Source: Candidatus Acidiferrum sp.
Lineage (GTDB): Bacteria > Verrucomicrobiota > Verrucomicrobiia > Limisphaerales > UBA11358
Reading direction: 5' to 3'
DNA length: 64,000 bases
NCBI GenBank assembly: GCA_035506715.1
Contig: DATJOW010000095.1
Span: 5,393-69,392 of the forward strand
The translations under genes were made by a program, and so were the position numbers. Under the pieces are notes generated by a model. It was not told where the DNA came from. It made no database searches and worked only from the letters and a program-made list of their open reading frames with translations. How positions within the stretch are numbered: the first letter of the stretch is position 1; every line of letters starts with the position of its first letter. Below, one piece after another: positions 14,822-64,000 of this stretch.

Positions 14822-15252
14822 TGAATGAAGAAACGGAACCGTTTGAACGGCGCTTGAGCCGTCAGCCATTGCGGCAGATTCCCGCCGGCTGGCGCAAGGA
14901 AATCCTGGGCGAGGCGGACAAGGTAGGGACAGCGCGTCGCGCTGTCCGCGGACGCCGCAGCGCGGCGTCCCTACCCGACTGGATTTCAAATTTGCTGTGG
15001 CCTCATCCCGCCGCCTGGGCGGGGCTGGCAGCAGTTTGGCTTGTTGTACTTGCCGTGAACGTTTCGATCCGCGACCGCGCACCGGCGCTGGCGGAAAAAT
15101 TCACGCCGCCGCCGGAAGTAATGGTGGAACTGAAACGACAGCAACGGTTGCTGGCGGAGTTGATCGGACCGCGCGAGGCCCGTGATGCCGACCGCGCCAA
15201 ACCGTTGGTGCCGCGGCCGCGAACGGAGAGCGGCGAGTTTGTGGCGGTGTGA
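14818..15252 (+). CDS. Putative single-pass anti-sigma factor
   Basis: The ATG at 14818 overlaps the sigma stop (ATGA). One TM segment (AAWAGLAAVWLVVLAVNV). The call rests on position only; no conserved anti-sigma motif was recognised. Confidence 0.5.
   Translation: MMNEETEPFERRLSRQPLRQIPAGWRKEILGEADKVGTARRAVRGRRSAASLPDWISNLLWPHPAAWAGLAAVWLVVLAVNVSIRDRAPALAEKFTPPPEVMVELKRQQRLLAELIGPREARDADRAKPLVPRPRTESGEFVAV
14922..14975. repeat. REP-like nested palindrome (54 nt) inserted in frame in the anti-sigma gene
   Basis: Outer stem GGTAGGGAC/GTCCCTACC encloses two perfect hairpins: GACAGCGCG-t-CGCGCTGTC (its outer GAC is shared with the 3' end of the outer-stem arm) and GGACGCCGC-agc-GCGGCGTCC. It translates as VGTARRAVRGRRSAASLP. 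Confidence 0.75.
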
Positions 15253-15348: not shown

Positions 15349-17109
15349 ATGAATGAAGAACCCAAAAGCATCTGGAAAAAATCGTTGACCGGCTGGTGCA
15401 TCCTGTCCGTTGTCGCGTTGCTTCTGGCTTTCGCGGGATTTCTAGCGGCGCTGGCGAGCAGTCTATTTCATTTCGACAACAGCAAACTTTTCGGCCTGTC
15501 TTTTTTTGTCAACTGGCTGATTCTCACCATTGGCGCGGCAGCCACCTTTCTGGTGTTGATCCTGCTCTTCCGCTTCATCCGGTGGCTGTATTGTTGGCGT
15601 AACTTCAAGCGATTTCTTTTCGCGGTCGCGTGTCTGGCCACACTGATCGCGTTGTTCTACGCCGAGGAAGACTGGCGCGGCAAACATGCCTGGGAAACAT
15701 TCAAACGCGAGTGGGAGGCCAAAGGCGAACGTTTCGATCGCGCCAGCGTGGTTCCGCCGCCGGTGCCGGACGACCAGAATTTTGCGCTGACGCCGATTGT
15801 CTTTACCAGTTACGGCCAATTGCTGACGCGCGACGGGAAATTCATTCCCTGGGCTGAACGCGACACCAACTTCGTCAACCGGCTGCAAGTGAACATTGGT
15901 GGCCCCCAGCCCTGGCCGACCAATGGTGATTGGCGCCTGGCGCGCGTCAGCGATTTAAGCGCCTGGCAACAGTATTATCGGGCCCTGGCCGCCAAAACGA
16001 ATCAGTTCCCCGTCCCGCCCCAACCGGTATCGCCCGCCGCCGATGTCCTCTTCGCGTTGGGCAAGTACGATTCAACGATCGAGGAGCTGCGGCAAGCCGG
16101 CCAACTGCCTGATTCACGTTTTCCGCTGGAATATGACAAGGATGACCCGGCGGCGATGCTGTTGCCGCACCTAGCGCCGCTGAAAAATTGCGCCCAGGTT
16201 TTACAATTGCGCGCCTTGGCGGAATTGCAGAACGGCCAAAGCGACCGGGCGCTGGCCGACGTAAAACTCATTTTGCGCCTGGCGGATTCGCTCCGCTCGG
16301 AGCCCATTCTGATTTCGCAGCTGGTCCGCGCTGCACTGGTGAATCTCGCGCTCCAGCCGATCTGGGAGGGGCTCCGGCAACGCCAATGGTCGGACGCCCA
16401 ATTGATCGAACTGGGAAATGACCTGGCGAAGACAGATTTTTTGGCTGCCAGCGAACTTGCCTTGCGCGGAGAACGCATCTGGGGTGTTGAAATCATAGAA
16501 TATTTGCGACATTTGACTTACCGGGAAAGGCTGCGCACCCTTTCCGCTTTTGGCAGCAATCTCAAACTCGAGGACGAAATTTTCCTTTGTCTCGGCCCGG
16601 CTGGATGGTTTGACCAAAGCGAACTCCGAATTAGTCGTTTCCTTCTCCGGCACTATTCGCCGGTGGTAAATCTTGACCGGCAAATAGTTTCTCCTGTTGC
16701 TGTGCGAAACGCGGATGAGGCATTCGGCGCGGAAGTTGGCCATTCCGGCAATGGTAATTTTTTTGAGCGATTATTACTGTCGGCCGCGGGCAACGTAGTG
16801 GAGAAATTAGCCTGCGGGCAAAATGCGGTGAACCTGGCGCGTACGGCCTGTGCGTTGGAGCGTTACCGCCTCGCGCATGGCCAATATCCGGAATCGCTGG
16901 ACGCGCTGGTGCCGCAATTCATCGCCCAGCCGCTGCATGATGTCATCAACGGCCAACCGCTGCATTATCGACGCACGAATGATGGCCAATTCGTCCTTTA
17001 TTCCGTCGGCTGGAACGAGACGGATGACGGCGGGGAAGTCGGCTTCACCAAACAAGGCGGTCTGGACATCAGCACCGGTGACTGGGTCTGGCAGTATCCG
17101 CAGAAATAA
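15349..17109 (+). CDS. Membrane protein, unknown function, with a GspG-like C-terminal motif
   Basis: Three N-terminal TM helices. The C-terminus LHYRRTNDGQFVLYSVGWNETDDGGEV resembles the conserved C-terminal sheet of type II secretion pseudopilins. Confidence 0.5.
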   Translation: MNEEPKSIWKKSLTGWCILSVVALLLAFAGFLAALASSLFHFDNSKLFGLSFFVNWLILTIGAAATFLVLILLFRFIRWLYCWRNFKRFLFAVACLATLIALFYAEEDWRGKHAWETFKREWEAKGERFDRASVVPPPVPDDQNFALTPIVFTSYGQLLTRDGKFIPWAERDTNFVNRLQVNIGGPQPWPTNGDWRLARVSDLSAWQQYYRALAAKTNQFPVPPQPVSPAADVLFALGKYDSTIEELRQAGQLPDSRFPLEYDKDDPAAMLLPHLAPLKNCAQVLQLRALAELQNGQSDRALADVKLILRLADSLRSEPILISQLVRAALVNLALQPIWEGLRQRQWSDAQLIELGNDLAKTDFLAASELALRGERIWGVEIIEYLRHLTYRERLRTLSAFGSNLKLEDEIFLCLGPAGWFDQSELRISRFLLRHYSPVVNLDRQIVSPVAVRNADEAFGAEVGHSGNGNFFERLLLSAAGNVVEKLACGQNAVNLARTACALERYRLAHGQYPESLDALVPQFIAQPLHDVINGQPLHYRRTNDGQFVLYSVGWNETDDGGEVGFTKQGGLDISTGDWVWQYPQK

Positions 17110-17110
17110 A

Positions 17111-17245
17111 AGCTCCAAGCTCCAACATCCAAGCTCCAGAGAAATCTCAAGCCTCAAGCGCCAAACCAAAACCATCATCGCCGCGTTTTCTTGTTTGGCT
17201 GTTGGAATTTCTCTGGAGCTTGGTGCCTGGAATTTGGGGGTTTTT
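17111..17245. repeat. Long imperfect inverted repeat built from period-7 units
   Basis: Left arm: AGCTCCA AGCTCCA ACATCCA AGCTCCA GAGAAAT CTCAAGC CTCAAGC GCCAAAC. The 17-nt core CCAAGCTCCAGAGAAAT (17129-17145) is perfectly complementary to 17207-17223. The element ends in GGGGGTTTTT. Confidence 0.75.
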
Positions 17246-21620: not shown

Positions 21621-21715
21621 ATTTGCATTTACGATTTACGATTTACGATTTACGATTGCTCCGGGGCTCCGAAACGGTGGGAAAATCACAAATCATCAAT
21701 CGTAAATCATAAATG
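21621..21715 (+). repeat. Heptamer-array element: (ATTTACG)x4-ATTGC, 22-nt spacer, inverted array GGAAAAT CACAAAT CATCAAT CGTAAAT CATAAAT
   Basis: Read directly. The last unit plus G forms TAAATG, which contains the metF start (21713). It is homologous to the element at 36343..36419. Confidence 0.8.
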
Positions 21716-22606
21716 CCCGTTCATTTCATTCGCGACATTTACGCAGCCAAAGGGGCGGCCAAACAGCCGGTCATCTCTTTTGAATTTTTCCCTCCTAAAA
21801 CAGAGGAAGGGGACCGCGCCCTGCTGGAACGCCAGGTCCCGGCCCTGTTGGCGGCCCGGCCGGATTTTTGTTCCGTCACCTACGGCGCCGGCGGCAGCAC
21901 GCGCGACAAGACGCTGATGATTGTGGACCGCATTCAGCGGCAATACGGGTTGACGACGCTGGCGCATCTGACCTGTGTGGGCCACACCCGGGCGCAGGTG
22001 CAGGAGCTCCTGGAGAAAATCCGTGGGTTGGGCTGTAAAAATATCCTGGCCTTGCGCGGCGATCCTCCGGCGGGCGGCGTTTTTCAGCCGGCTCCCGGCG
22101 GTTTCGAATTCGCCGGGCAACTGGTCCGGCTCATCCGTGACGCGGGTGACTTCTCCATCGGGGTCGCCGGCTTTCCCGAGGGGCACCTTGCCTGTCCGGA
22201 CGGCAAGCAGGCCGACTGGTGGCACTTGCGCGAAAAGGTGGAGGCTGGCGCGGACTTTGTGCTGACCCAGCTGTTCTTTGACAACGCGGATTATTTTGAA
22301 TTTCGGGAGTACGTTGGCGGCCGCCTGGGGGTCCGCGTGCCATTGGTCCCGGGAATTGTGCCCATCCTGAGCGCCGGCCAAATCACAAAATTCATCCAGG
22401 TCTGTGGCGCCAAAATCCCGCCGCCGCTGCGCACCCGGCTTGATCAATTGGCGGAGGACGATGAGGCCGCCGCTGAATTTGGCATCGAGTACGCCACCCG
22501 CCAGTGCCAGGATTTGTTGCGGGCAGGCGTGCCCGGGTTGCATTTTTACACGCTGAACAAATCGCGGTCCACCGTCCAGGTGCTGAAGAACCTCGGTCTG
22601 GCCTGA
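21713..22606 (+). CDS. metF: 5,10-methylenetetrahydrofolate reductase MetF
   Basis: ISFEFFPPKT, VTYGAGGSTR, LTCVGH, TQLFFD motifs. 297 aa. Confidence 0.9.
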   Translation: MPVHFIRDIYAAKGAAKQPVISFEFFPPKTEEGDRALLERQVPALLAARPDFCSVTYGAGGSTRDKTLMIVDRIQRQYGLTTLAHLTCVGHTRAQVQELLEKIRGLGCKNILALRGDPPAGGVFQPAPGGFEFAGQLVRLIRDAGDFSIGVAGFPEGHLACPDGKQADWWHLREKVEAGADFVLTQLFFDNADYFEFREYVGGRLGVRVPLVPGIVPILSAGQITKFIQVCGAKIPPPLRTRLDQLAEDDEAAAEFGIEYATRQCQDLLRAGVPGLHFYTLNKSRSTVQVLKNLGLA

Positions 22607-32783: not shown

Positions 32784-32930
32784 AGACTAAAAGTGACGCA
32801 TTCGCCCCGGTTGCCAAGTTCAAAATGCCGCCCCAACGCGAAGAGGCTTTGTCCGGATGGATTTGCATGGTAAATTGCACGGGCCGAAATGAGCGTCACC
32901 ATCCAGTCTGAACCGGCAGGAGAGCAAACT

Positions 32931-32958
32931 CCGCCATCCGCCATCCGCCATCCGCCCT
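32931..32958. repeat. Heptamer tandem array (CCGCCAT)x3 + CCGCCCT inside the U32 N-terminus
   Basis: Read directly. Translates as PPSAIRHPP. Confidence 0.7.
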
Positions 32959-33822
32959 TGCCGGAGTTGCTCGCGCCCGCTGGGGACTGGGATTGCGTAC
33001 GCGCCGCGGTCGAGAACGGCGCCGATGCGATTTATTTCGGCCTCGAAAAATTCAACGCCCGGATGCGGGCGCAGAACTTCACCTCGGCCGATCTGCCTTG
33101 CTTGATGGATTTTCTGCACCGGCGCGGCGTGCGCGGCTATGTCACTCTCAACACGCTGGTTTTTGAGCAGGAACTCGCCGACGCCGAAAAATATTTGCGC
33201 ACGATGATCGCCGCCGGGGTGGACGCCGTCGTGGTCCAGGATGTGGGCATCTGCCGGCTGATCCGGCGGCTTTCGCCCGATTTACCGATTCACGCTTCGA
33301 CCCAGATGACCATCACCAGCGCCGCCGGCGTGGATTTCGCCCGCGACCTCGGCTGCAGCCTGGTCGTGCTCGCCCGCGAATGTTCCATCAAGGAAATCGA
33401 GAAAATCCAAGCCATACAAGGCAAGGCGGGCCGTCTCTTGCCCGCCGTATCCTCCTTTACCAACGACGGCGCGATAGCGACATCGCGCCCCACCATTCTC
33501 CCCCTGGAAGTTTTTGTCCACGGCGCTCTCTGCGTTGCTTACTCGGGCCAATGCCTGACCAGCGAGGCGCTCGGTGGTCGCTCGGCCAACCGCGGCGAAT
33601 GCGCCCAAGCCTGCCGCATGCCTTACGAACTCCTGTCCGACGGGCAACTCGTGCCGCTGGGTGACCGGAAATATCTGCTGAGCCCGCAGGACCTGGCCGG
33701 GCTGGACGTGTTGCCGGAATTGATTCGAGCGGGCGTGGCCTCGCTGAAAATCGAGGGCCGGCTCAAATCCCCCGAATACGTGGCGAATATCACGCGGATT
33801 TACCGCCAAGCGCTGGATAATT

Positions 33823-33890
33823 GCGGAATGCAGAATGCGGAATGTGAAATGCTATCTGCCTCAGCCAGTCCGAAATCCGAAATCCGAAAT
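33823..33890. repeat. Paired heptamer arrays GCGGAAT GCAGAAT GCGGAAT GTGAAAT / 19-nt spacer / (CCGAAAT)x3, at the U32 frameshift
   Basis: Read directly. Total length is 68 nt, which is not a multiple of 3. The left arm has 4 units and the right arm 3. Confidence 0.8.
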
Positions 33891-34649
33891 ATGAGATGGA
33901 GATGGCTTTCTCCCGCGGCTTGCACACCGGCTGGTTCGGCGGCACCAACAATCAGCAACTCGTACACGCCCGCTTCGGAAAAAAACGCGGGGTCTATCTC
34001 GGTGAAGTGAAAAAGGTTTTGCGCGACGCGGTTGTGGTCAAACTGAAAGGCCCGTTGAAGCCGGGCGACGGCGTGGTGTTTGACGCCGGCAAGCCGGCGG
34101 AACCCGAGGAGGGCGGGCGGGTTTACGAAATCCGAAAGGCAAGGCGCGGTGTCCCTACCGCGCCGAAAGCACGGCTCGCTACGGAGGGCGAGCCCCACCA
34201 GGTCGAACTCCATTTCGGCCGCGGCGACATCCATTTCGCGCGCGTTCACGTCGGCGACAAACTGTGGAAGACCAGCGACCCGGAACTGGACCGACGCCTC
34301 CGCCAAAGCTTCGCCGGTGCTACGCCCAGATTCCAGCGACCGATTGAAATCGAAGTGCACGGCATCGCCGGCAAGGCGCTGACCCTGATTGCCCATGATG
34401 AATTCGGCAACATTGCCAAAGTGGAATCATCCATGCCGCTGGCCCGGGCGGATAAACATCCGCTCACGACGGACCGTTTGCGCGAACAATTGGGCCGGTT
34501 GGGGGGCACGCCGTTCCGGCTCGGTGGGTTAAAAAACCTTTTGTCGGGTGACGTGCTGCTGCCGGTCAGCGAGCTGAATCGCTTGCGCCGCGAAATCGTC
34601 GGCGAACTGGAAAGGCGGCGCACCCAGCCTAAGCGTTGGACGCTTTCTG

Positions 34650-34733
34650 ATTGCCGGTTGCCGGTTGCCGATTGCCGATTGAGCGACGATGCGGGCGCAG
34701 CCAAAAATCCGCAATCCGCAATCCGCAATCCGC
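34650..34733. repeat. Paired inverted heptamer arrays ATTGCCG GTTGCCG GTTGCCG ATTGCCG / 28-nt spacer / (AATCCGC)x4, in frame inside the U32 gene
   Basis: 84 nt = 28 codons. Translates as DCRLPVADCRLSDDAGAAKNPQSAIRNPQ. The arms are complementary at 5-6 of 7 positions per unit. Confidence 0.8.
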
Positions 34734-34873
34734 AATTGATTGTTCTGGTCCGCAACCTGCCCCAACTCGAAGCCGCGCTGAAATGCGGGGTGACAACCGT
34801 CTATTGCGAATTTGAAGACCCCAAGAAATACCGCGACGCGGTCACGCTGTTCCACGCGGCCTTCGATCGCCAA

Positions 34874-34930
34874 GGTAGGCCGGGCGGTCCTCTGCCCGCC
34901 GGCGGCGCGCACGGAGTGACGCGCCCTACC
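34874..34930. repeat. REP-like nested palindrome (57 nt), in frame inside the U32 gene
   Basis: Outer stem GGTAGG/CCTACC. Inner hairpin GGCGCG-cacggagtga-CGCGCC plus an imperfect CCGGGCGG/CCCGCCGG hairpin. Translates as GRPGGPLPAGGAHGVTRPT. Confidence 0.65.
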
Positions 34931-35627
34931 ATCTGGGTTGCGCCTCCAAGAATTTTCAAGCCGGGCGAGGACTGGACGCTGGAACAGGTGCGCTCCGGCA
35001 ACGCCGATGGTTATTTAATCCGCAATTACGATCACTTGAAATTCTTCGCGAACGACCGGCGCGTCGGTGATTACTCGCTCAACATCGCCAACCGGCTGGC
35101 GGCGGATTATTTCAAGAACCCATGCGGCCTGGAGCGGGTGACGGCGAGCTACGATTTGAATTTCCAGCAGCTCGAAGCGTTGTTGACCGCCGCGCCGCCC
35201 GAGTGGTTCGAGGTGACCATCCACCAGCACATGCCGATGTTTCACATGGAGCATTGCGTGTTCTGCGCGTTCCTTTCCACCGGCACGGACTTCCGGAACT
35301 GCGGCCGCCCCTGCGACGTGCACGACGTGAAGCTGCGCGACCGCATGGGCGCGGAGCATCCGGTGAAGGCCGACGTCGGCTGCCGCAACACGGTGTTCAA
35401 CGCGCTGGCCCAGACCGGCGCGGAATATGTGTCGCGGATGATCGAACTGGGCGTGCGACATTTCCGCGTGGAATTCCTCAACGAAGCGCCGGAACAGGTG
35501 ATGCAAACCATTGCCAAGTATCATCAGCTATTGCGCGGTGAAATCACCGGCACGCAGCTCTGGCGCAAATTGAAACTGTTCAACCAGCTCGGCGTCACCC
35601 GGGGGCAAATCGGGAAGTAGAACAGGC

Positions 35628-36338
35628 TTACTGGTAGAAGTATCCCAACTCGCGCAGCGATGCGTAGTCCTTCGGCCGGTCCGGTGTGGCACGGCCGATG
35701 ATGATGTGGTCCAGCACCTCGATTTTCAAAAGCTGGCCGGCGCGGATTAAATCGCGCGTCACCTTGATGTCCGCCTCGCTGGGCGTGGGGTCGCCGCTGG
35801 GATGGTTGTGCACCAGCACAATGGCCGCCGCGTTGGCCGCGATGGCCGACCGGAACACCTCGCGCGGATGCACCAGGATGGTGTCGAGCGTGCCGTGCGA
35901 AATGTCCTCCACCCGGATCAGCCGCCGCCGCGTGTTCAACAGGAGCGCCTGGAAGGTTTCGACGCTTTTCACCAGGTTTTGCTCGCGCAGCAGCCGGACG
36001 ATGGCCTCCGGATTGTCGAGCACCGGCGATTCGCGCTGCAAATCCTTGGCCATCGCGCGGGCCAGCGCAAACGCGGCCACCAGCGTCACCGCCTTGTCGC
36101 GCCCGATGCCCTTGACGGTCTGCAAATCGTCCACCGAAGTTTGGGCCAATGACTGGAGAGTGCCGAATTTGTGGAGCAGTTGCCGGCCGATTTCGACGGC
36201 GTTGGCGCCTTTCAGGCCGGTGCGCAGCAGGATGGCGACCAGTTCGGCGTGCGTCAGAGCGTCCGGCCCGCGCTCGGCCAACCGTTCGCGCGGCCGTTCG
36301 CTCAGCGGCTGGTCCTTCAGTCGCAGCCCCTCTGACAT
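35628..36338 (-). CDS. radC: RadC-family JAB-domain protein
   Basis: N-terminal HhH region (ERLAERGPDALTHAELVAILLRTG) and the C-terminal JAMM motif LVHNHPSGDPTPSEAD. Confidence 0.9.
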   Translation of the reverse strand: MSEGLRLKDQPLSERPRERLAERGPDALTHAELVAILLRTGLKGANAVEIGRQLLHKFGTLQSLAQTSVDDLQTVKGIGRDKAVTLVAAFALARAMAKDLQRESPVLDNPEAIVRLLREQNLVKSVETFQALLLNTRRRLIRVEDISHGTLDTILVHPREVFRSAIAANAAAIVLVHNHPSGDPTPSEADIKVTRDLIRAGQLLKIEVLDHIIIGRATPDRPKDYASLRELGYFYQ

Positions 36339-36342
36339 GGTG

Positions 36343-36419
36343 ATTTACGATTTACGATTTACAATTTACGATTGCAACTCAATTTCAACGCCGCCCGTGT
36401 CAAGCGTCAATCGTAAATG
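36343..36419 (+). repeat. Second copy of the heptamer-array element: ATTTACG ATTTACG ATTTACA ATTTACG ATTGC, spacer, CGTCAAT CGTAAAT
   Basis: Shares (ATTTACG)n-ATTGC and the 12-mer TCAATCGTAAAT with 21621..21715. Its TAAATG contains the start of the AddA-like gene (36417). The left end begins 4 nt from the radC start codon. Confidence 0.8.
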
Positions 36420-39400
36420 GCATCATCGAACAAAGACAAAAACCCTCTGACCGAGGCGCAGCGGGAAGCCGTGAAAGCGCGCGGCAACGTGCTCGTCATG
36501 GCCGGCGCCGGCACCGGCAAAACCCACACTCTGGTCGAGCGCTGCCTGCATTGCCTTTGCGAGGAGCGGCCGCCCGCGTCGCTCGAGGAAATCGTCGTCG
36601 TTACCTTCACCGAAGCCGCCGCCGCCGAGATGCGCCAGCGCCTGCGCGAGCGGCTGGAGGAAAAACTCAAGGCGGAGCCCGACGAACCGCGCTGGGTGGA
36701 ACAGCTCACCCTCTTCGACACGGCCCACATTGGCACGCTCCACAGCTTCTGTCTTAAGCTCATCCGCGAACATTTCCATGCCCTCGGCCTCGATCCGCAG
36801 CTGGCCGTGCTCGACGAGGGTGAGGCCCGGCTGCTCGCCGAGGAAACGCTCGAAGCCGAATTGCAGGGCCACTACGCCGGCAAAAGCGAGCCGGCCAAAG
36901 CCGTTCAGCAATTGATCCAGGTTTACGGGGGCGGGCGTGACGAGGCCATCCGCCGGCTGGTCCTGCGACTGCACCACTACGCCCAAACCCGGCCCGATGC
37001 CGACGGCTGGCTGGCGCGGCAGATTGAAAAATTTTCGGTCCCTACCCCGGACGAGTGGCAAAAGTGGCTGCTCGCGGCGATTCAGGATTGGCGCGACGAA
37101 TGGCTGCCGGCTCTGGCAGCCCTTGGAACGCCGAACTCCAATTCGGCACGTTTCCGGGCGGATGACCTTCAAGGCGAACCGGAGTTCGGCGCTCCACCGG
37201 CAAACGAGAAAGCCGCCGAAATGGAGGGTGTTCTCCGGTTGTTGCCCGCTGATTTTTCGCGCGAAGCCGCCGCTGAAATTCTGGCGCAAATCATCGCCGC
37301 CGATGGTCAATGGCCGGCAAAACGCAAAACCGTCTTGCGCAAACCGCTGGCCGGCTTTTTTGATGACGCCCGTTTTCTCCTCTCCCTCGCGGCGGTTAAA
37401 AACGGCGCCGATCCGCTGGCTGAAGACTGGGCCCCGATCCGGAGCCACATGGACGCATTGCTGCGCCTGACTCAGGGGTTTGCCGCCCGGTTCGCGGCCC
37501 GCAAGCGCGAGGAGGGCGTCCTGGATTTCCACGACCTGGAACAATTCGCCCTGAAACTGCTCTGGGATTCTTCGACGGGCCGGCCGAGCGCCATCGCCGG
37601 CCGCTGGCGGGAAAAAATCCGGTTTGTCTTCGTGGACGAATACCAGGATATCAACGCCGCGCAGGATAAAATCATCCAAGCGTTGAGCCGGGAGGGATCC
37701 GCGGCGAATCGCTTCCTGGTTGGCGATGTGAAACAAAGCATTTACCGGTTCCGGCTGGCTGACCCGGAAATTTTCCGCACCTACGCTCAAACCTGGCGCG
37801 GCAAAAAGGGCCGGACCATCCCGCTCACCGAAAACTTTCGCAGCCGCGAGGGCTTGCTCGATTTCGTCAATGCGGTCTTCCAGCCGCTCCTGCGCGAGGA
37901 CATCGGCGGCATTGGCTATGACGCCGAGGCGCAATTGCAGTTTGGCGCGCCGCAGTCGCGCACTCCGCTTGGCACCGCCACCGATCCGGCGCCGCGCGCC
38001 GAATTGCTTCTGCGCCTCAAGTCCGGCCGCGATGACACGGCGTCGGGCGACAGCGATGGCGACGACGAACTCGCGGATTTGCTGGACACGGAGAAGGAGG
38101 CGCGCTGGCTGGCGCAGCGGCTGAAAGAATTGCACGAGGCCGGGCATAGAATTGTCTGGGACGAGAAACAACAGGTTTCCCGTCCAGCGGAATGGCGCGA
38201 CATGGCGGTGTTGTTGCGGGCGCCGGCCGGCAAAGCGGAAGTTTATGCGAAGGAATTCCAGGGCGCCGGGGTGCCGCTGGTCGTCGCGCGCGGCGGGTTC
38301 TATGACAGCAGCGAAATTCTGGATTTGCTGAGCCTGCTGCAATTGCTTGACAACCCTTTGCAGGACGTGCCGGTCATTGCGGTGCTGCGGTCGCCGCTGG
38401 TGGGGCTGTCGCTTGACGAGCTTGCTCAAATCCGGCTGGCGGCCAGGGGCCATTTCTGGACGGCGCTGAACCGAGCGCGGGTTGCGGATTGCGGATTACG
38501 GAAGGAAACGACGCACAAAATCGGAAAATTTCTGGAGCGGTTCCCGCGCTGGCGGCGACTGGCGCGGCAGGGATCGCTGTCACAGTGTCTGGAAAGCGTG
38601 CTGGGGGAAACGTTTTACGCCGACTGGCTGGCCGCCCGGCCGCGCGGAGCGCAGCGGCGGGCCAAGATTGAGCGCCTGCTGGCGCTGACGCAAAAGTTCG
38701 ATCAATTGCCGCGGCAGGGGCTGTTCCGCTTCCTGCAATTTATCGAAGCGCAGCGCGAGACCGGGGCTGAACCGGAGGTCGGCGCGGTTCCCGGCGAAGA
38801 TGCAGTGCGGCTGATGAGCATCCACCAGAGCAAGGGTTTGGAGTTCCCGATCGTCGCGCTGGCCGACCTCGCAAAACCGTTCAACACCCAGGAGCTTCGC
38901 AGTGAAATCATTTTGGATGGAACCTACGGCCTTTGCCCAATTGTCCAGTCCCGGAATCGGATGTCAGGTTATCCCAGCCTGCCGCACTGGCTGGCACGGT
39001 CGCATCAGCGCCGCGAACAATGGGGCGAGGAATTGCGCCTGCTCTACGTCGCCCTGACCCGAGCCCGCGATTTTCTCCTCCTGACCGGCACCGTTTCCAA
39101 AAAGAAAGGGGAGATGCTGGGGACCGGGTCCCCGCCCTTGACGACCCCCGCCATCCTCGCGGCCAACAGTTATGCTGACTGGCTCGGCTTATGGTTGGGC
39201 GGACAGCCGGCTCCAAATGGGATCGGCGGCAACTTGCCGTATTTGCGCTGGCGGCTGGCGGAGGATGCCGAATTGCTGGTGGAATCACCGGGAGCAGCGG
39301 TGGAATCAGGACCGCCGGCTTGGGACCCGCAAACCGGGCCGGCCCTGCAAAAGAGGCTGGCCTGGGATTATCCGTTCGCCGCAGCCACCCGCCGCGCGGC

Positions 39401-40067
39401 CAAGACCACCGTCACCACGTTGCGCCGGCAGGCGACCGAGGAACCGGAAGATGAGGCGGAGGCGCTGTTTCGGGTTTCTCGTTTTCCGCTTTCAGCCGGA
39501 CGGCGCGCCAAAAGAGGCTCGGCCACACAATTGAGCGCGGCTGACACCGGCACGGCTCACCATAAATTCCTGCAACACTTCGCGCTGGACGCCGCGTCAT
39601 CGGTCGCAGCGCTGGAGGCGGAGGCGAATCGTCTGGAACGGGCGAGGATCCTTTCGGCCGCCGAGGGTGCGGCCTTGAATTTGTCGGACATCGCGGCGTT
39701 CTGGAACTCGGACCCGGGAAAACGAATCCGCGCTCAAGCCACCCAGCTTCGGCGCGAACTGGCATTCACCGCGCGCTTCAGCCCGGCGGAACTGGAAACC
39801 GCCACCGGGGTGAAGGCGGCGCCCGGATTGGAGGACGAATTCGTCATCGTGCAAGGCGTGGCGGATCTCGTCACGCTGTTGCCGCAGGAAATCTGGCTGG
39901 TAGATTTTAAGACGGATGATATCCCGGCGGGGGAACTGGCGGGACGGGTTCAGGCCTATGCTCCGCAGCTGAGATTGTACGCGATGGCGCTGGAAAGAAT
40001 TTATGGACGGCCGGTTACGAACCGCTGGCTGCATTTTTTGGCCAGCCGCCGGACGGAGAAGATTTAA
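36417..40067 (+). CDS. UvrD/Rep-type helicase fused to a PD-(D/E)XK nuclease (AddA/PcrA-like)
   Basis: Walker A AGAGTGKT, motif II FVDEYQD, later helicase motifs (TIHQSKGLEF, YVALTRAR). C-terminal nuclease motif QGVADLV...IWLVDFKTD. 1216 aa. Confidence 0.85.
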   Translation: MASSNKDKNPLTEAQREAVKARGNVLVMAGAGTGKTHTLVERCLHCLCEERPPASLEEIVVVTFTEAAAAEMRQRLRERLEEKLKAEPDEPRWVEQLTLFDTAHIGTLHSFCLKLIREHFHALGLDPQLAVLDEGEARLLAEETLEAELQGHYAGKSEPAKAVQQLIQVYGGGRDEAIRRLVLRLHHYAQTRPDADGWLARQIEKFSVPTPDEWQKWLLAAIQDWRDEWLPALAALGTPNSNSARFRADDLQGEPEFGAPPANEKAAEMEGVLRLLPADFSREAAAEILAQIIAADGQWPAKRKTVLRKPLAGFFDDARFLLSLAAVKNGADPLAEDWAPIRSHMDALLRLTQGFAARFAARKREEGVLDFHDLEQFALKLLWDSSTGRPSAIAGRWREKIRFVFVDEYQDINAAQDKIIQALSREGSAANRFLVGDVKQSIYRFRLADPEIFRTYAQTWRGKKGRTIPLTENFRSREGLLDFVNAVFQPLLREDIGGIGYDAEAQLQFGAPQSRTPLGTATDPAPRAELLLRLKSGRDDTASGDSDGDDELADLLDTEKEARWLAQRLKELHEAGHRIVWDEKQQVSRPAEWRDMAVLLRAPAGKAEVYAKEFQGAGVPLVVARGGFYDSSEILDLLSLLQLLDNPLQDVPVIAVLRSPLVGLSLDELAQIRLAARGHFWTALNRARVADCGLRKETTHKIGKFLERFPRWRRLARQGSLSQCLESVLGETFYADWLAARPRGAQRRAKIERLLALTQKFDQLPRQGLFRFLQFIEAQRETGAEPEVGAVPGEDAVRLMSIHQSKGLEFPIVALADLAKPFNTQELRSEIILDGTYGLCPIVQSRNRMSGYPSLPHWLARSHQRREQWGEELRLLYVALTRARDFLLLTGTVSKKKGEMLGTGSPPLTTPAILAANSYADWLGLWLGGQPAPNGIGGNLPYLRWRLAEDAELLVESPGAAVESGPPAWDPQTGPALQKRLAWDYPFAAATRRAAKTTVTTLRRQATEEPEDEAEALFRVSRFPLSAGRRAKRGSATQLSAADTGTAHHKFLQHFALDAASSVAALEAEANRLERARILSAAEGAALNLSDIAAFWNSDPGKRIRAQATQLRRELAFTARFSPAELETATGVKAAPGLEDEFVIVQGVADLVTLLPQEIWLVDFKTDDIPAGELAGRVQAYAPQLRLYAMALERIYGRPVTNRWLHFLASRRTEKI
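37129..37191. repeat. 63-nt palindromic segment in frame inside the helicase gene
   Basis: 11-nt perfect inverted termini CGCCGAACTCC / GGAGTTCGGCG. Terminal mini-hairpins CCGAA..TTCGG and CGAAC-cgga-GTTCG. Encodes the low-complexity stretch PNSNSARFRADDLQGEPEFG. Confidence 0.5.
38481..38501. repeat. Heptamer tandem array GTTGCGG ATTGCGG ATTACGG inside the helicase gene
   Basis: Read directly. Same unit family as 33823 and the reverse complement of 34706-34733. Confidence 0.6.
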
Positions 40068-62084: not shown

Positions 62085-64000
62085 ATGAAAAAGACCGAGA
62101 AAACTATCAAACCCAACAGTCTTTTCCGGCGGCTGGCCGGGACTTTGACAGGTGTTCTGCTGTGGCTAGGCGTCCTGCCTCTGGCCGCGCTCGGCCAGGC
62201 CAACTACGCCACCCCCTACACCTTCATCACCATCGCCGGGAAAAGCTTCTATGGTAGCGCGGACGGGACGAATGGCGCCGCGCAGTTCGCTTTTCCTTTC
62301 GGCACGGCGGTGGACAGCGCGGGCAATATCTTCGTGGCGGACGCAGCGAACTGCACGATTCGGGAAGTGACGCCGGTCGGAACCAATTGGGTAGTGACGA
62401 CCTTGGTCGGACAGGCGGGCAGCGCCGGCACCAATGACGGGACGGGGAACGCCGCGCGGTTCAACGGCCCTGGCGGTGTGGCCGTGGACACGAGCGGCAA
62501 CGTCTATGTGGCGGACACAGGCAACCACACGATCCGAAAAGTGACGCCGGTGGGCGCGAATTGGGTGGTGACGACCCTGGCCGGACTGGGTGGCAGTGCC
62601 GGCAGCGCGAACGGGACGGGGAGTGCCGCCCGGTTTTATTTTCCTCAGGACGTGGCGGTGGACAGCGCGGACAACGTGTATGTGGCGGACTCACTCAACG
62701 ACACCATCCGCAAAGTGACACCAGCGGGGGCAGTGACGACCCTGGCCGGACTGGCGTTCACTGAAGGCACGTCCGACGGAACGGGGAGCGCCGCCCGGTT
62801 CCACTTTCCTCTTGGCGTCACGGTGGATAGCGGGGGCAACGTCTATGTGGCCGACACAGCCAACGCCACCATCCGCAAAGTGACGTCAGCGGGTGTGGTG
62901 ACGACCTGGGCGGGACTGGCGGGCTATAGAGGAACCAACGACGGCACGGGGAACGCCGCGCGGTTTAGCGGGGCGGTTGGCGTGACAGTGGACAACGCCG
63001 GCAACCTCTATGTCGCGGATTACATGAACAATACGATTCGACAAGTGACCCCGGCGCGGCTGGTGACGACCCTAGCCGGCGGGCCGGGCTACAATGCAGG
63101 GAGCGCGGACGGGACGGGGAATGAGGCGCAGTTTTCTTATCCTTATGGCGTGGCGGTGGACAGCGCAGGCAACGTCTACGTGGCGGACACAGGCAACGAC
63201 ACGATCCGGGAAATAATGCCGGTCGGACCCAATTGGGTGGTGACGACGATCGCCGGACACCCAGGCGTTGCCGGCAGCGCGAACGGGACTGGAACCGCCG
63301 CGCGGTTTAACGGGCCTTACGACGTGGCGGTGGACAGTCTGGGCAACCTTTATGTGGCGGACGATTTGAACGACACGATCCGGAAAGTGACGCCGGTCGG
63401 ACCTAATTGGGTGGTGACGACGATTGCCGGATACCCAGGGGTTGACGGCAGCGCGAACGGGACGAACAGCGCCGCGCGGTTTAATTATCCTCAGGGTGTG
63501 GCGGTGGACAACGCGGGTAATCTCTATGTGGCGGATCAAAACAACTCCACCATTCGGGAGGTGGCGCCGGTCGGAACCAATTGGGTGGTGACGACGATTG
63601 CGGGATCCCCAGGTCGTCCTGGCAGCGCGGACGGGACGAACAACGCCGCGCGGTTTTATTATCCTAAGGGCGTGGCGGTGGACACGAACGGCAATGTCTA
63701 TGTGGCGGACCAATTCAACGACACGATCCGAGAAATAACGCCGGTTGGAACGAATTGGGTGGTGACGACTCTGGCCGGACTGGCAGGCGATCATGCCAGC
63801 GCGGACGGGACGAACAGTGCCGCGCGGTTTGCTTATCCTCAGGGTGTGGCGGTGGACAGCGCAGGCAATCTCTATGTGGCGGATGGTGACAACTTCTCAA
63901 TCCGCAAAATGACGCCGGTCGGAACCAATTGGGTAGTGACGACCCTCGCTGGTCAGTCGGGCTATTTTGCCGAGATAGACGGGACGGGGAGCGCCGCGCG
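62085..64000 (+). CDS. Secreted NHL-repeat beta-propeller protein (3' end beyond the window)
   Basis: Open-ended, so absent from the ORF track. ATG at 62085, signal peptide ...LLWLGVLPLAALGQA. At least ten units of xGxADGTGxAARFxxPxGVAVDxxGNxYVADxxNxTIRKVTPxGxxWVVTTLAG. All listed minus-strand ORFs here are shadows. Confidence 0.85.
   Translation, partial: MKKTEKTIKPNSLFRRLAGTLTGVLLWLGVLPLAALGQANYATPYTFITIAGKSFYGSADGTNGAAQFAFPFGTAVDSAGNIFVADAANCTIREVTPVGTNWVVTTLVGQAGSAGTNDGTGNAARFNGPGGVAVDTSGNVYVADTGNHTIRKVTPVGANWVVTTLAGLGGSAGSANGTGSAARFYFPQDVAVDSADNVYVADSLNDTIRKVTPAGAVTTLAGLAFTEGTSDGTGSAARFHFPLGVTVDSGGNVYVADTANATIRKVTSAGVVTTWAGLAGYRGTNDGTGNAARFSGAVGVTVDNAGNLYVADYMNNTIRQVTPARLVTTLAGGPGYNAGSADGTGNEAQFSYPYGVAVDSAGNVYVADTGNDTIREIMPVGPNWVVTTIAGHPGVAGSANGTGTAARFNGPYDVAVDSLGNLYVADDLNDTIRKVTPVGPNWVVTTIAGYPGVDGSANGTNSAARFNYPQGVAVDNAGNLYVADQNNSTIREVAPVGTNWVVTTIAGSPGRPGSADGTNNAARFYYPKGVAVDTNGNVYVADQFNDTIREITPVGTNWVVTTLAGLAGDHASADGTNSAARFAYPQGVAVDSAGNLYVADGDNFSIRKMTPVGTNWVVTTLAGQSGYFAEIDGTGSAA

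Follow-up and report, generated by a model that had tools for sequence, protein, structure and literature searches.

Paired heptanucleotide arrays in the interdomain linker of a U32/DUF3656 protein gene from the Limisphaerales

The element described here is a pair of inverted heptanucleotide arrays located at positions 34650–34733 of a stretch of 64,000 nt (hereafter the window, which is the whole of the DNA that was analysed) of contig DATJOW010000095.1, assembly GCA_035506715.1, assigned to Candidatus Acidiferrum sp. This genome is placed in the Limisphaerales, a group of abundant, little-studied soil and freshwater Verrucomicrobiota. The pair lies inside the gene of a long protein of the U32/DUF3656 family, and we interpret it as a paired heptanucleotide microsatellite, i.e., an (ATTGCGG)-type array, a variable loop and an (AATCCGC)-type array, that would have overwritten the linker between two domains, would be translated as this linker, and would be maintained as a neutral or selfish passenger; a probability of about 55% is assigned to this reading as a whole.

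The heptamer pair and the linker that it occupies

The left array consists of one ATTGCCG unit, two GTTGCCG units and a further ATTGCCG unit (34650–34677), and it is separated by a spacer of 28 nt (34678–34705) from (AATCCGC)x4 (34706–34733). Tandem Repeats Finder detected both arrays with a period of 7, the left one at 34649–34681 with 4.7 copies and 92% matches, and the right one at 34706–34736 with 4.4 copies and 100% matches; hence, the arrays, the spacer and the coordinates of the arms that had been given in a preliminary description of this DNA were correct. Considered as an inverted repeat, the arms comprise 31 nt each, are 81% complementary and have a separation of 25 nt. A 21-mer derived from the unit gave six matches in the window when up to three mismatches were allowed, versus 0.00 expected from 100 shuffles; likewise, perfect arrays of at least three units were found in the window for period 7 (n=5), and none for periods 5, 6 and 8–12 (n=0). 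From these results it can be concluded that the heptamer repeats are not a product of chance. The 84 nt were previously counted as exactly 28 codons (residues 252–279), and this count had to be amended, since the pair is not codon-aligned and overlaps 29 codons (34649–34735), which correspond to residues 252–280 of the open reading frame (ORF) 33896..35620, reading DCRLPVADCRLSDDAGAAKNPQSAIRNPQ.

The pairing between the arms in the window shows one C.C mismatch per unit, as well as G.U wobbles that result from the two GTTGCCG units. The systematic mismatch had already been pointed out in the preliminary description, and it can now be traced to the left arm being built of a variant unit, the reverse complement of AATCGGC, a sequence that forms arrays of its own in two of the loci compared below (L039 and L028). 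Judging from the sequences compared, this variant unit is lineage-specific, and the canonical (ATTGCGG)n-loop-(AATCCGC)n arrangement pairs well. When folded as RNA, the window copy forms a long interrupted hairpin of -38.6 kcal/mol (z = -2.7 versus shuffles); the arms of the equivalent pair of locus L012 pair almost perfectly, with -46.2 kcal/mol and z = -5.7.

Table 1. Positions in the window of the heptamer arrays of the U32/DUF3656 gene and of the two reading frames into which this gene is divided
Feature	Position	Strand	Description
ORF1	32889..34010	+	Frame 0; N-terminal U32 domain of the same gene as ORF2, in a different frame
Array in the N-terminal tail of the U32 gene	32930..32956	+	Perfect (TCCGCCA)x3.9; translated PSAIRHPP
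Sister heptamer element (site 1)	33819..33889	+	71 nt; left, about 4 AATGCGG-like units; right, (TCCGAAA)x3
ORF2	33896..35620	+	Frame 2; last 574 aa of a long protein of the U32 family, with DUF3656 and a second U32-like domain
Left arm of the pair (site 2)	34650..34681	+	(RTTGCCG)x4 and partial unit ATTG; translated DCRLPVADCRL
Spacer or loop of the pair	34682..34705	+	Translated SDDAGAAK; no relation to the loops of other copies
Right arm of the pair	34706..34736	+	Perfect (AATCCGC)x4.4; translated NPQSAIRNPQ

According to Pfam, ORF1 contains most of a Peptidase_U32 domain, and ORF2 matches DUF3656 (residues 123–242) as well as a second, weak, U32-like Peptidase_U32 domain (residues 394–553). 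The best 120 database homologues are single proteins of 863–1039 aa with 73–81% identity, and those that carry a name belong to Limisphaerales or Verrucomicrobiota; given that the orthologues are single proteins, the U32 gene of the window is split. In a look-up for an intact allele, the product of ORF2 had no exact match on record in public assemblies. The residues encoded by the element fall between the DUF3656 and the C-terminal Peptidase_U32 matches, and for this reason the earlier assignment of this repeat-derived segment to an interdomain linker is retained. In an AlphaFold2 model of ORF2, which is of low confidence (mean predicted local distance difference test score, pLDDT, of 49; predicted template modelling score, pTM, of 0.38), residues 245–276 appear as a coil with pLDDT values below 50, preceded by a helix (residues 224–243) and followed by a strand (residues 280–285) that is the first one of the next domain. 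This model hints, weakly, that the element could act as a linker between two structured parts.

The linker, hereafter site 2, was compared in the best 120 orthologues, in 80 U32 loci (numbered L001–L080), and in 97 distant homologues that are mutually less than 50% identical. The cyanobacterial versions included among the loci (L033–L076, from Nostocales and others) are 59–63% identical to the query, about the same as those from Opitutae and other orders of Verrucomicrobiota. The peptide encoded in the window, DCRLPV...NPQSAIRNPQ, was conserved in 0/120 orthologues, 0/80 related loci and 0/97 distant homologues, and since no homologue has kept it, the segment is not ancestral coding sequence. 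Orthologues devoid of the repeat that nevertheless keep the peptide, the observation that according to the preliminary description would speak against a repeat origin, were looked for in these sets and none appeared.

Site 2 is bounded by the conserved anchors QPKRW and LI(V/A)LVRN, and the content in between differs in every orthologue. About a dozen recurring and unrelated peptide families were distinguished at this site in the 120 orthologues, freely combined with the families present at site 1, a second hypervariable interval that is described in the next section. Most of the site-2 families are palindromes at the DNA level, and several of them are heptamer-array pairs of the same kind as the one in the window. 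These include (ATTGCGG)x4 followed by an AATCCGA-type array in L008, an ATTGCGG/AATGCGG-type array followed by (AATCCGC)x3-4 in L012, and (AATGCGG/AGTGCGG)n followed by (ATTCCGC/ACTCCGC)n in L014, L020 and L021; in L032 the left array, (ATTGCGG)x4, has no right partner. Arrays of the (ATTGCGG)n..(AATCCGC)n type are also present at site 1 of L002 and L009, and the unit is present at site 3 of L141. The idea that this element belongs to a recurring family is thus supported: the unit and the pair architecture were also encountered in other species at this very site, elsewhere in the U32 gene, in further genes and in intergenic regions. A neighbour-joining tree of the 120 orthologues is star-like, with all the sequences at approximately 11–13% from the query, and consequently it gives no order for the gains and losses of the elements; what can be stated is that the families of site 1 and those of site 2 combine freely.

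Measured from anchor to anchor, site 2 has 96 nt in the window, a median of 93 nt in the Limisphaerales-type loci, 69–129 nt in the cyanobacterial orthologues, and 63–93 nt in four repeat-free orthologues from Opitutae. The 97 distant homologues (97/97) likewise have a linker that is about as long and in which a weak ALxxLR motif can be recognised. As a linker of similar length exists in every homologue, the repeat is not a net insertion, and these lengths suggest that it replaced a linker that already existed; given that the 84-nt element fills almost the whole interval of 96 nt, most of the older linker would have been displaced. Therefore, the earlier notion of an inserted element holds with respect to the repeat origin of the segment and to its peptide not being ancestral, but it has to be set aside with respect to length, since none was added (96 versus 63–93 nt).

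The reading frame and the distribution of the arrays

Site 1 is located approximately 800 nt upstream of the main element, after the residues YRQALD and inside the U32 domain, and in the window it is occupied by the sister element included in Table 1. Loci L002 and L009 have at this site an in-frame pair of 78 nt, formed by (ATTGCGG-like)x4, a loop and (AATCCGA)x4. The DNA alignment of the window with these two loci revealed a single gap of 7 nt, situated in the right-arm array of the sister element (33869–33890), where the window has three units versus four. Being one 7-nt unit short, the sister element creates the frameshift that separates ORF1 from ORF2. On the other hand, both variable intervals are multiples of three in 80/80 related loci, the sole exception being site 1 of the window. 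The gap of 7 nt, together with the 80 loci that remain in frame, is direct evidence of array change in steps of one whole unit and of selection on the frame. These results agree with the preliminary description, in which an out-of-frame sister element was located 800 nt upstream and it was proposed that a filter on the reading frame determines which arrays persist within genes: neither site breaks the frame in any of the related loci, and at the lone exception the gene is broken. The change in the number of units was seen at the sister element; no such change was observed for the copy at 34650–34733 itself.

Programmed -1 frameshifting was considered as a means to rescue the split gene and it was rejected, because the sole canonical slippery site, A AAA AAC (33980–33986), is found downstream of conserved residues that are already in the frame of ORF2. 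Within 33848–33890, no slippery heptamer was found by reading the sequence.

The abundance of the arrays was surveyed by period in 45 Limisphaerales-type loci (705 kb) and in the cyanobacterial loci (527 kb). In the former, 42 strong period-7 arrays were detected versus 0–4 for each other period; in the latter there were 53 period-7 arrays, an excess that was to be expected given that heptamer repeats are known in cyanobacteria. In the Limisphaerales-type loci the U32 gene represents 17% of the DNA and holds 29/42 arrays, i.e., 2.38 versus 0.22 arrays per 10 kb, an enrichment of approximately 11-fold (p = 2e-13, a value that is not corrected for orthology), and the U32 arrays of the related loci occupy at least five variable sites. 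No enrichment of arrays in the U32 gene was found among the cyanobacterial orthologues, which have at site 1 their own hairpin repeats, of the CCTAACCCCCTAACCCCC...GGGAAGGGGGAA type, or heptamer arrays (AGGTCAA in L074 and GGCAGAC in L063). A few units, namely AATCCGC, ACTCCGC, AAATCGT and AATGCGG, turn up repeatedly in different genes and at sites that are not homologous, and the pair architecture with AATCCGC is also intergenic.

The U32 gene contains other repetitive stretches. At site 3, heptamer arrays were found in L003, L005, L006, L019, L021, L028, L070 and L141. In the window, GC-rich hairpin DNA is present at 34131–34200, with GGCGCGGT..ACCGCGCC and GGCTCGC..GCGAGCC and the in-frame translation RKARRGVPTAPKARLATEGEP, and at 34876–34930, with GGTAGG...CCTACC and the in-frame translation GRPGGPLPAGGAHGVTRPT; both stretches coincide with positions that are variable among the orthologues.

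A metagenome scan for (AATCCGC)x4 identified at least 120 contigs (L081–L200), and the 80 loci that were examined, with G+C contents of 41 to 72%, hold 132 arrays. The inverted (ATTGCGG)n partner is located upstream in 42/132 arrays and downstream in only 2 (42:2). The loops of the 42 paired copies measure 0–101 nt and show no similarity from locus to locus, with the exception of two chance or orthologous pairs. When the sequences that flank the copies of the window, of the U32 loci and of the metagenomes were inspected by eye, no target duplications were apparent, although this inspection was not systematic and the ends of the arrays are hard to define. With loops that are unrelated between copies and no apparent target duplications, nothing points to a discrete mobile element. 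Using crude gene calls based on the G+C content of third codon positions, 7 paired copies were found between divergent genes versus 1 between convergent genes. The metagenome arrays often continue straight into the start codon (...CCGCAATG), and those that are near the 5' ends of genes have mostly AATCCGC on the sense strand; in this orientation the array has neither start nor stop triplets, and the opposite orientation contains TTG.

The encoded peptides are also widespread. When the heptapeptide repeats encoded by the two arrays were used as queries, 1557 proteins were retrieved at E<=10, which confirms that these peptides are searchable signatures, as had been anticipated; almost all the best 120 of these 1557 matches are ORFs of approximately 100 aa or less that are largely repeat. 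The named sources among the peptide matches are Nevskiaceae, Bordetella, Pasteurella, Pirellulales, Acidobacteriota, Bacteroidota, Lentimicrobium and Anaerolineae, and with Nevskiaceae, Bordetella, Pasteurella, Acidobacteriota, Bacteroidota and Anaerolineae in this list, the repeat family is not specific to the Planctomycetes–Verrucomicrobia–Chlamydiae group, in whose proteomes it was first proposed to look for it.

Origin of the arrays and competing explanations

According to the explanation that we favour, a repeat pair would take over the linker sequence of the long U32/DUF3656 protein and would then serve as the translated linker; the gene being otherwise conserved, the in-frame copy is probably translated. 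Such a replacement would be tolerated because the linker would require an approximate length and not a given sequence, because the units are free of stop codons in every register of both strands, and because the whole interval is a multiple of three. Whichever of the three frames is read, a heptamer array yields one and the same cyclic heptapeptide. The reverse of ATTTACG, a unit found elsewhere in the window, contains TAA, and the copies of this family that are inside genes are edited so that TAA is never in frame (e.g., L006). Slipped-strand events would add 7-nt units to the arrays or remove them; slippage is the presumed mechanism of a whole-unit change that was itself observed at the sister element. 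A unit variant that spreads to the other units of its array may explain why the G-to-C change is uniform along the left arm, and the loss of one unit in the sister element would have produced the frameshift of the gene. No benefit for the host is assumed, and the element would presumably be neutral, or else a selfish passenger.

The copies could have been born locally, or another array could have been their source, through templated copying or gene conversion. A genomic pool from which they are copied is suggested by unrelated sites that share units and topology, and by non-heptamer palindromes that occupy the same linkers in different frames; repeated local birth is suggested by loops that are unrelated, by a very broad taxonomic spread and by the fact that no target duplications are apparent. 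Given a fixed topology combined with unrelated loops and no apparent target duplications, these repeats are better described as paired heptanucleotide microsatellites than as a classical miniature inverted-repeat transposable element (MITE).

Several observations weigh against the interpretation of a neutral array that overwrote the linker. The replacement is deduced from the lengths of linkers in relatives of no more than 95% identity, which do not reveal exact junctions between empty and filled sites. Rather than a fixed mutation, the frameshift may be an error of the assembly or a variant present in a minority of the population. Approximately half of the Limisphaerales linkers fold significantly, which leaves room for selection on the hairpin. 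The 42:2 topology is evidence of a polar process in the array family, and a neutral model does not explain it. Likewise, a concentration of arrays as strong as that in the U32 gene is not obviously predicted by a purely passive model of permissive linkers. The last two of these points are taken up by another reading, which we regard as rather unlikely, in which a dedicated copying mechanism that targets structure would exchange heptamer-array hairpins and other palindromes as cassettes at hairpins or linkers that are already in place. The domain boundaries of certain genes would be the landing pads, one element would take the place of another with the linker length kept, and the 42:2 ratio would be the footprint of this mechanism. 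The U32/DUF3656 gene may be such a landing pad, considering its 11-fold enrichment, its five or more sites, and the hairpin repeats that Limisphaerales and Nostocales alike have at site 1.

It is also possible, albeit doubtful, that nothing was copied into the linker and that the arrays are purely local microsatellites, originated by a bias of the replication machinery towards 7-nt slippage in an unconstrained linker, with the inverted partner produced by template switching or fold-back repair. Loops of 0 to 101 nt that are unrelated from copy to copy, without apparent target duplications, are in agreement with this proposal, as are the many different units, often chained, and the general excess of heptamers in bacteria (PMC4692102); the occurrence of the AATCCGC unit in very different phyla, on contigs of 41–72% G+C, also fits with convergence. 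Nevertheless, local birth does not account for AATCCGC, ACTCCGC, AAATCGT and AATGCGG recurring at non-homologous sites in different genes, nor for one fixed topology of the pair (42:2), and the non-heptamer palindromic families found in the same linkers, in different frames, look like colonisation from a genomic pool.

A functional nucleic-acid structure, i.e., an mRNA hairpin, a DNA cruciform or a protein-binding array that is selected at domain boundaries, for example for translation pausing or mRNA stability, and whose sequence could vary provided that pairing is kept, seems to us unlikely. In the folding survey, 47–53% of the Limisphaerales site-1 and site-2 intervals were at z < -2, versus 11% of the control coding segments; the window copy itself reaches this level, the cyanobacterial orthologues also have hairpin repeats at site 1 (55% at z < -2), and the unrelated repeat families present at the same two domain boundaries are all palindromic. 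However, no hairpin signal was found in about half of the Limisphaerales orthologues, in the four Opitutae or at site 2 of the cyanobacteria, every left-arm unit of the window contains an uncompensated variant, and the sister element shows neither a fold signal (z = -0.35) nor an inverted repeat. In addition, Rfam gave no match at the gathering threshold anywhere in the window. A role of the in-gene copy as promoter or terminator was rejected, given that no consensus match was found inside the element and that the regional counts were not above those of shuffles.

The possibility that the arrays constitute a phase-variation switch, in which the gain or loss of units toggles the U32 gene and the window represents the OFF state, is considered very improbable. 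As in contingency loci, a simple sequence repeat (SSR) whose unit is not a multiple of three lies inside an ORF; the sister element lacks exactly one unit relative to the in-frame state, the rest of the gene being otherwise intact, and the gene of the window has at least three heptamer arrays and is 11-fold enriched in them across the lineage. In contrast, the frequent on/off polymorphism in length that distinguishes contingency loci was not found: only 1/81 loci is out of frame, all 80 relatives being in frame at both sites, and the orthologous copies, those of 75 nt (an ATTTACG-type copy shared by six species at site 1) and those of 78 nt, have an identical length across species. Moreover, arrays of 3–5 units are short for switching at a high rate, and they are located in linkers in the middle of the gene, away from the start. 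Finally, there is hardly any reason to believe that the segment is ordinary ancestral coding sequence with a repetitive appearance, or an artefact of the assembly. All the homologues do have a linker of such a length, but none of the three sets compared keeps the peptide, the DNA is formed by two perfect or near-perfect period-7 arrays, and the same arrays are present in dozens of independent assemblies.

Known repeats, further arrays in the window and implications

Heptamer SSRs are reported to be over-represented in bacteria, which has been attributed to polymerase slippage (Mrazek et al. 2007, as cited in PMC4692102 and PMC4679880). Among the known heptamer repeats are the short tandemly repeated repetitive (STRR) sequences of the cyanobacteria Calothrix and Nostoc, GGGAATC of Xanthomonas and GGGGAYT of Nostoc (Rehm et al. 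2015, PMC4692102), as well as the TAACTGA repeats of Beggiatoaceae and cyanobacteria (MacGregor 2015, PMC4679880). For Xanthomonas, the occurrence of heptamer arrays in inverted orientation has been pointed out (PMC4692102), and for Beggiatoaceae and cyanobacteria that of arrays that abut start codons (PMC4679880). The arrays described here share with these systems the tandem 7-nt units, typically in about four copies, the excess of period 7, the unit variants within arrays, the occasional inverted pairs, the frequent position right before start codons, and the whole-unit change in copy number that was seen at the sister element; the GATT/AATC core is also common to the units of Xanthomonas and Nostoc. 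However, heptanucleotide SSRs have been described as overwhelmingly intergenic, whereas one coding gene, a local hot spot, contains the pair described here as well as the sister element and the N-terminal array. The host is also different from those known, since it belongs to Verrucomicrobiota, and the present units are not G-quadruplex formers. No published report linking heptanucleotide repeats to Verrucomicrobia was found.

Rickettsia palindromic elements (RPEs) are in-frame palindromic repeats located in housekeeping genes (Ogata et al. 2000, as summarised in PMC10969869). As in that summary, the repeat of the window is palindromic, is in frame in a housekeeping gene, and would contribute a neutral peptide segment at a position compatible with the fold. 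In contrast, RPEs have about 100–150 bp, a conserved body and peptide, add length, and are hosted by Rickettsia; in the repeats studied here only the heptamer arms are common, the loops are unrelated and the length is unchanged, and there is no sequence similarity to RPEs.

The small dispersed repeats (SDRs) of Nostoc and other cyanobacteria are reportedly very small hairpin repeats that spread in the genome, also inside genes that they do not disrupt, and often at recurrent places. They resemble the present repeats in being hairpins within genes, and the Nostocales orthologues of the U32 gene carry hairpin repeats at site 1; SDRs are said to be defined families of about 21–27 nt, unlike the heptamer arrays. 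There is also a resemblance to repetitive extragenic palindromic (REP) sequences, to REPINs and to MITEs, given that all of them are short imperfect palindromes in many copies, with an inverted pair and a loop, and with intergenic copies that adjoin the ends of genes. The 31-nt arms are comparable to the terminal inverted repeats of a MITE; however, no conserved internal sequence is common to the copies. As opposed to REPs and REPINs, the arms are tandem heptamers, the window copy is intragenic, and the copies favour, as far as the crude gene calls indicate, the 5' ends of genes and divergent regions over 3' ends.

The genes that surround the U32 gene have housekeeping functions (LpxA, RadC, an AddA-like helicase-nuclease, MTHFR, a porin and YebC), and no transposase, REP-associated tyrosine transposase (RAYT) or insertion sequence (IS) gene was present among the 12 gene products checked in the 64-kb window. 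Two pairs of the ATTTACG type are found between these genes. The one at 21625–21716 is formed by (ATTTACG)x4.4, a loop of 26 nt and a degenerate complementary array (85% complementary, z = -3.9), and it is located between a terminator-like hairpin 3' of the porin gene and MTHFR, whose start codon (21713) is within the last unit (CATAAATG, ...AAATG); its mismatches are of the C-to-T type and would pair as G.U on a minus-strand transcript. The one at 36341–36418 takes up the whole gap of 78 nt (36339–36416) between the divergent genes radC (35628..36338, minus strand) and addA-like (36417..40067, plus strand): the left array starts 3 nt from the start codon of radC, and the last unit of the right arm continues into the ATG of addA at 36417 (CGTAAATG, ...AAATG). 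The addA-like gene has in addition an in-frame (GCGGATT)x3.7 array, the reverse complement of the AATCCGC unit, at 38477–38502, translated as VADCGLR. Heptamer arrays were also found in ORFs of 1200–1300 aa of related loci (L004, position 7986; L005, 5648 and 8583; L001, 17663); these ORFs are presumed to be the orthologous AddA-like helicase, which may be a second hot-spot gene.

Other repeats of the window are of a different nature. A long hairpin (17108–17244) directly follows the stop of the ORF 15349..17109; its arms, of 43 nt and 77% complementary, start with (AAGCTCC)x4, and with -59 kcal/mol, z = -6.9 and a final T-run, GGGGGTTTTT, it is terminator-like. At 14920–14947 there is a GC-rich perfect hairpin, GGTAGGGACAGCGCG TCG CGCGCTGTCC, that resembles the REP-like palindromes of the 'VGQASSLS...RDRQDACPT' type translated in the U32 linkers of other lineages. 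Positions 62306–64000 comprise approximately 10 tandem copies of a 174-nt coding repeat with 73% identity, running off the end of the window; their motif, ...DSADNVYVAD..N..IRKV..., resembles NHL/beta-propeller repeats.

This case unites, in Verrucomicrobiota, features known from separate systems. Its novel aspects are the presumably translated pairs of heptamer arrays, the probable replacement of a linker without a change in length, and the existence of one hot-spot gene whose site 1 is occupied by repeats in Limisphaerales as well as in Nostocales. Heptamer microsatellites, which are usually treated as intergenic curiosities, can presumably be translated, and in Limisphaerales it is common for protein linkers to owe their sequence to small repeat DNA. 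As a consequence, gene callers and protein databases accumulate peptides that are derived from repeats, such as NPQSAIR and ADCGLRI, together with spurious small ORFs; likewise, slips of one unit can split conserved genes in metagenome-assembled genomes, and a check of the reads is advisable before a pseudogene is called. The hypervariable linkers are markers of lineages at a fine scale, and they constitute a natural experiment on the share of length versus sequence in what a linker requires. If the hot spot and the bias in topology have a mechanistic basis, they may lead to a hitherto unknown process by which repeats are spread.

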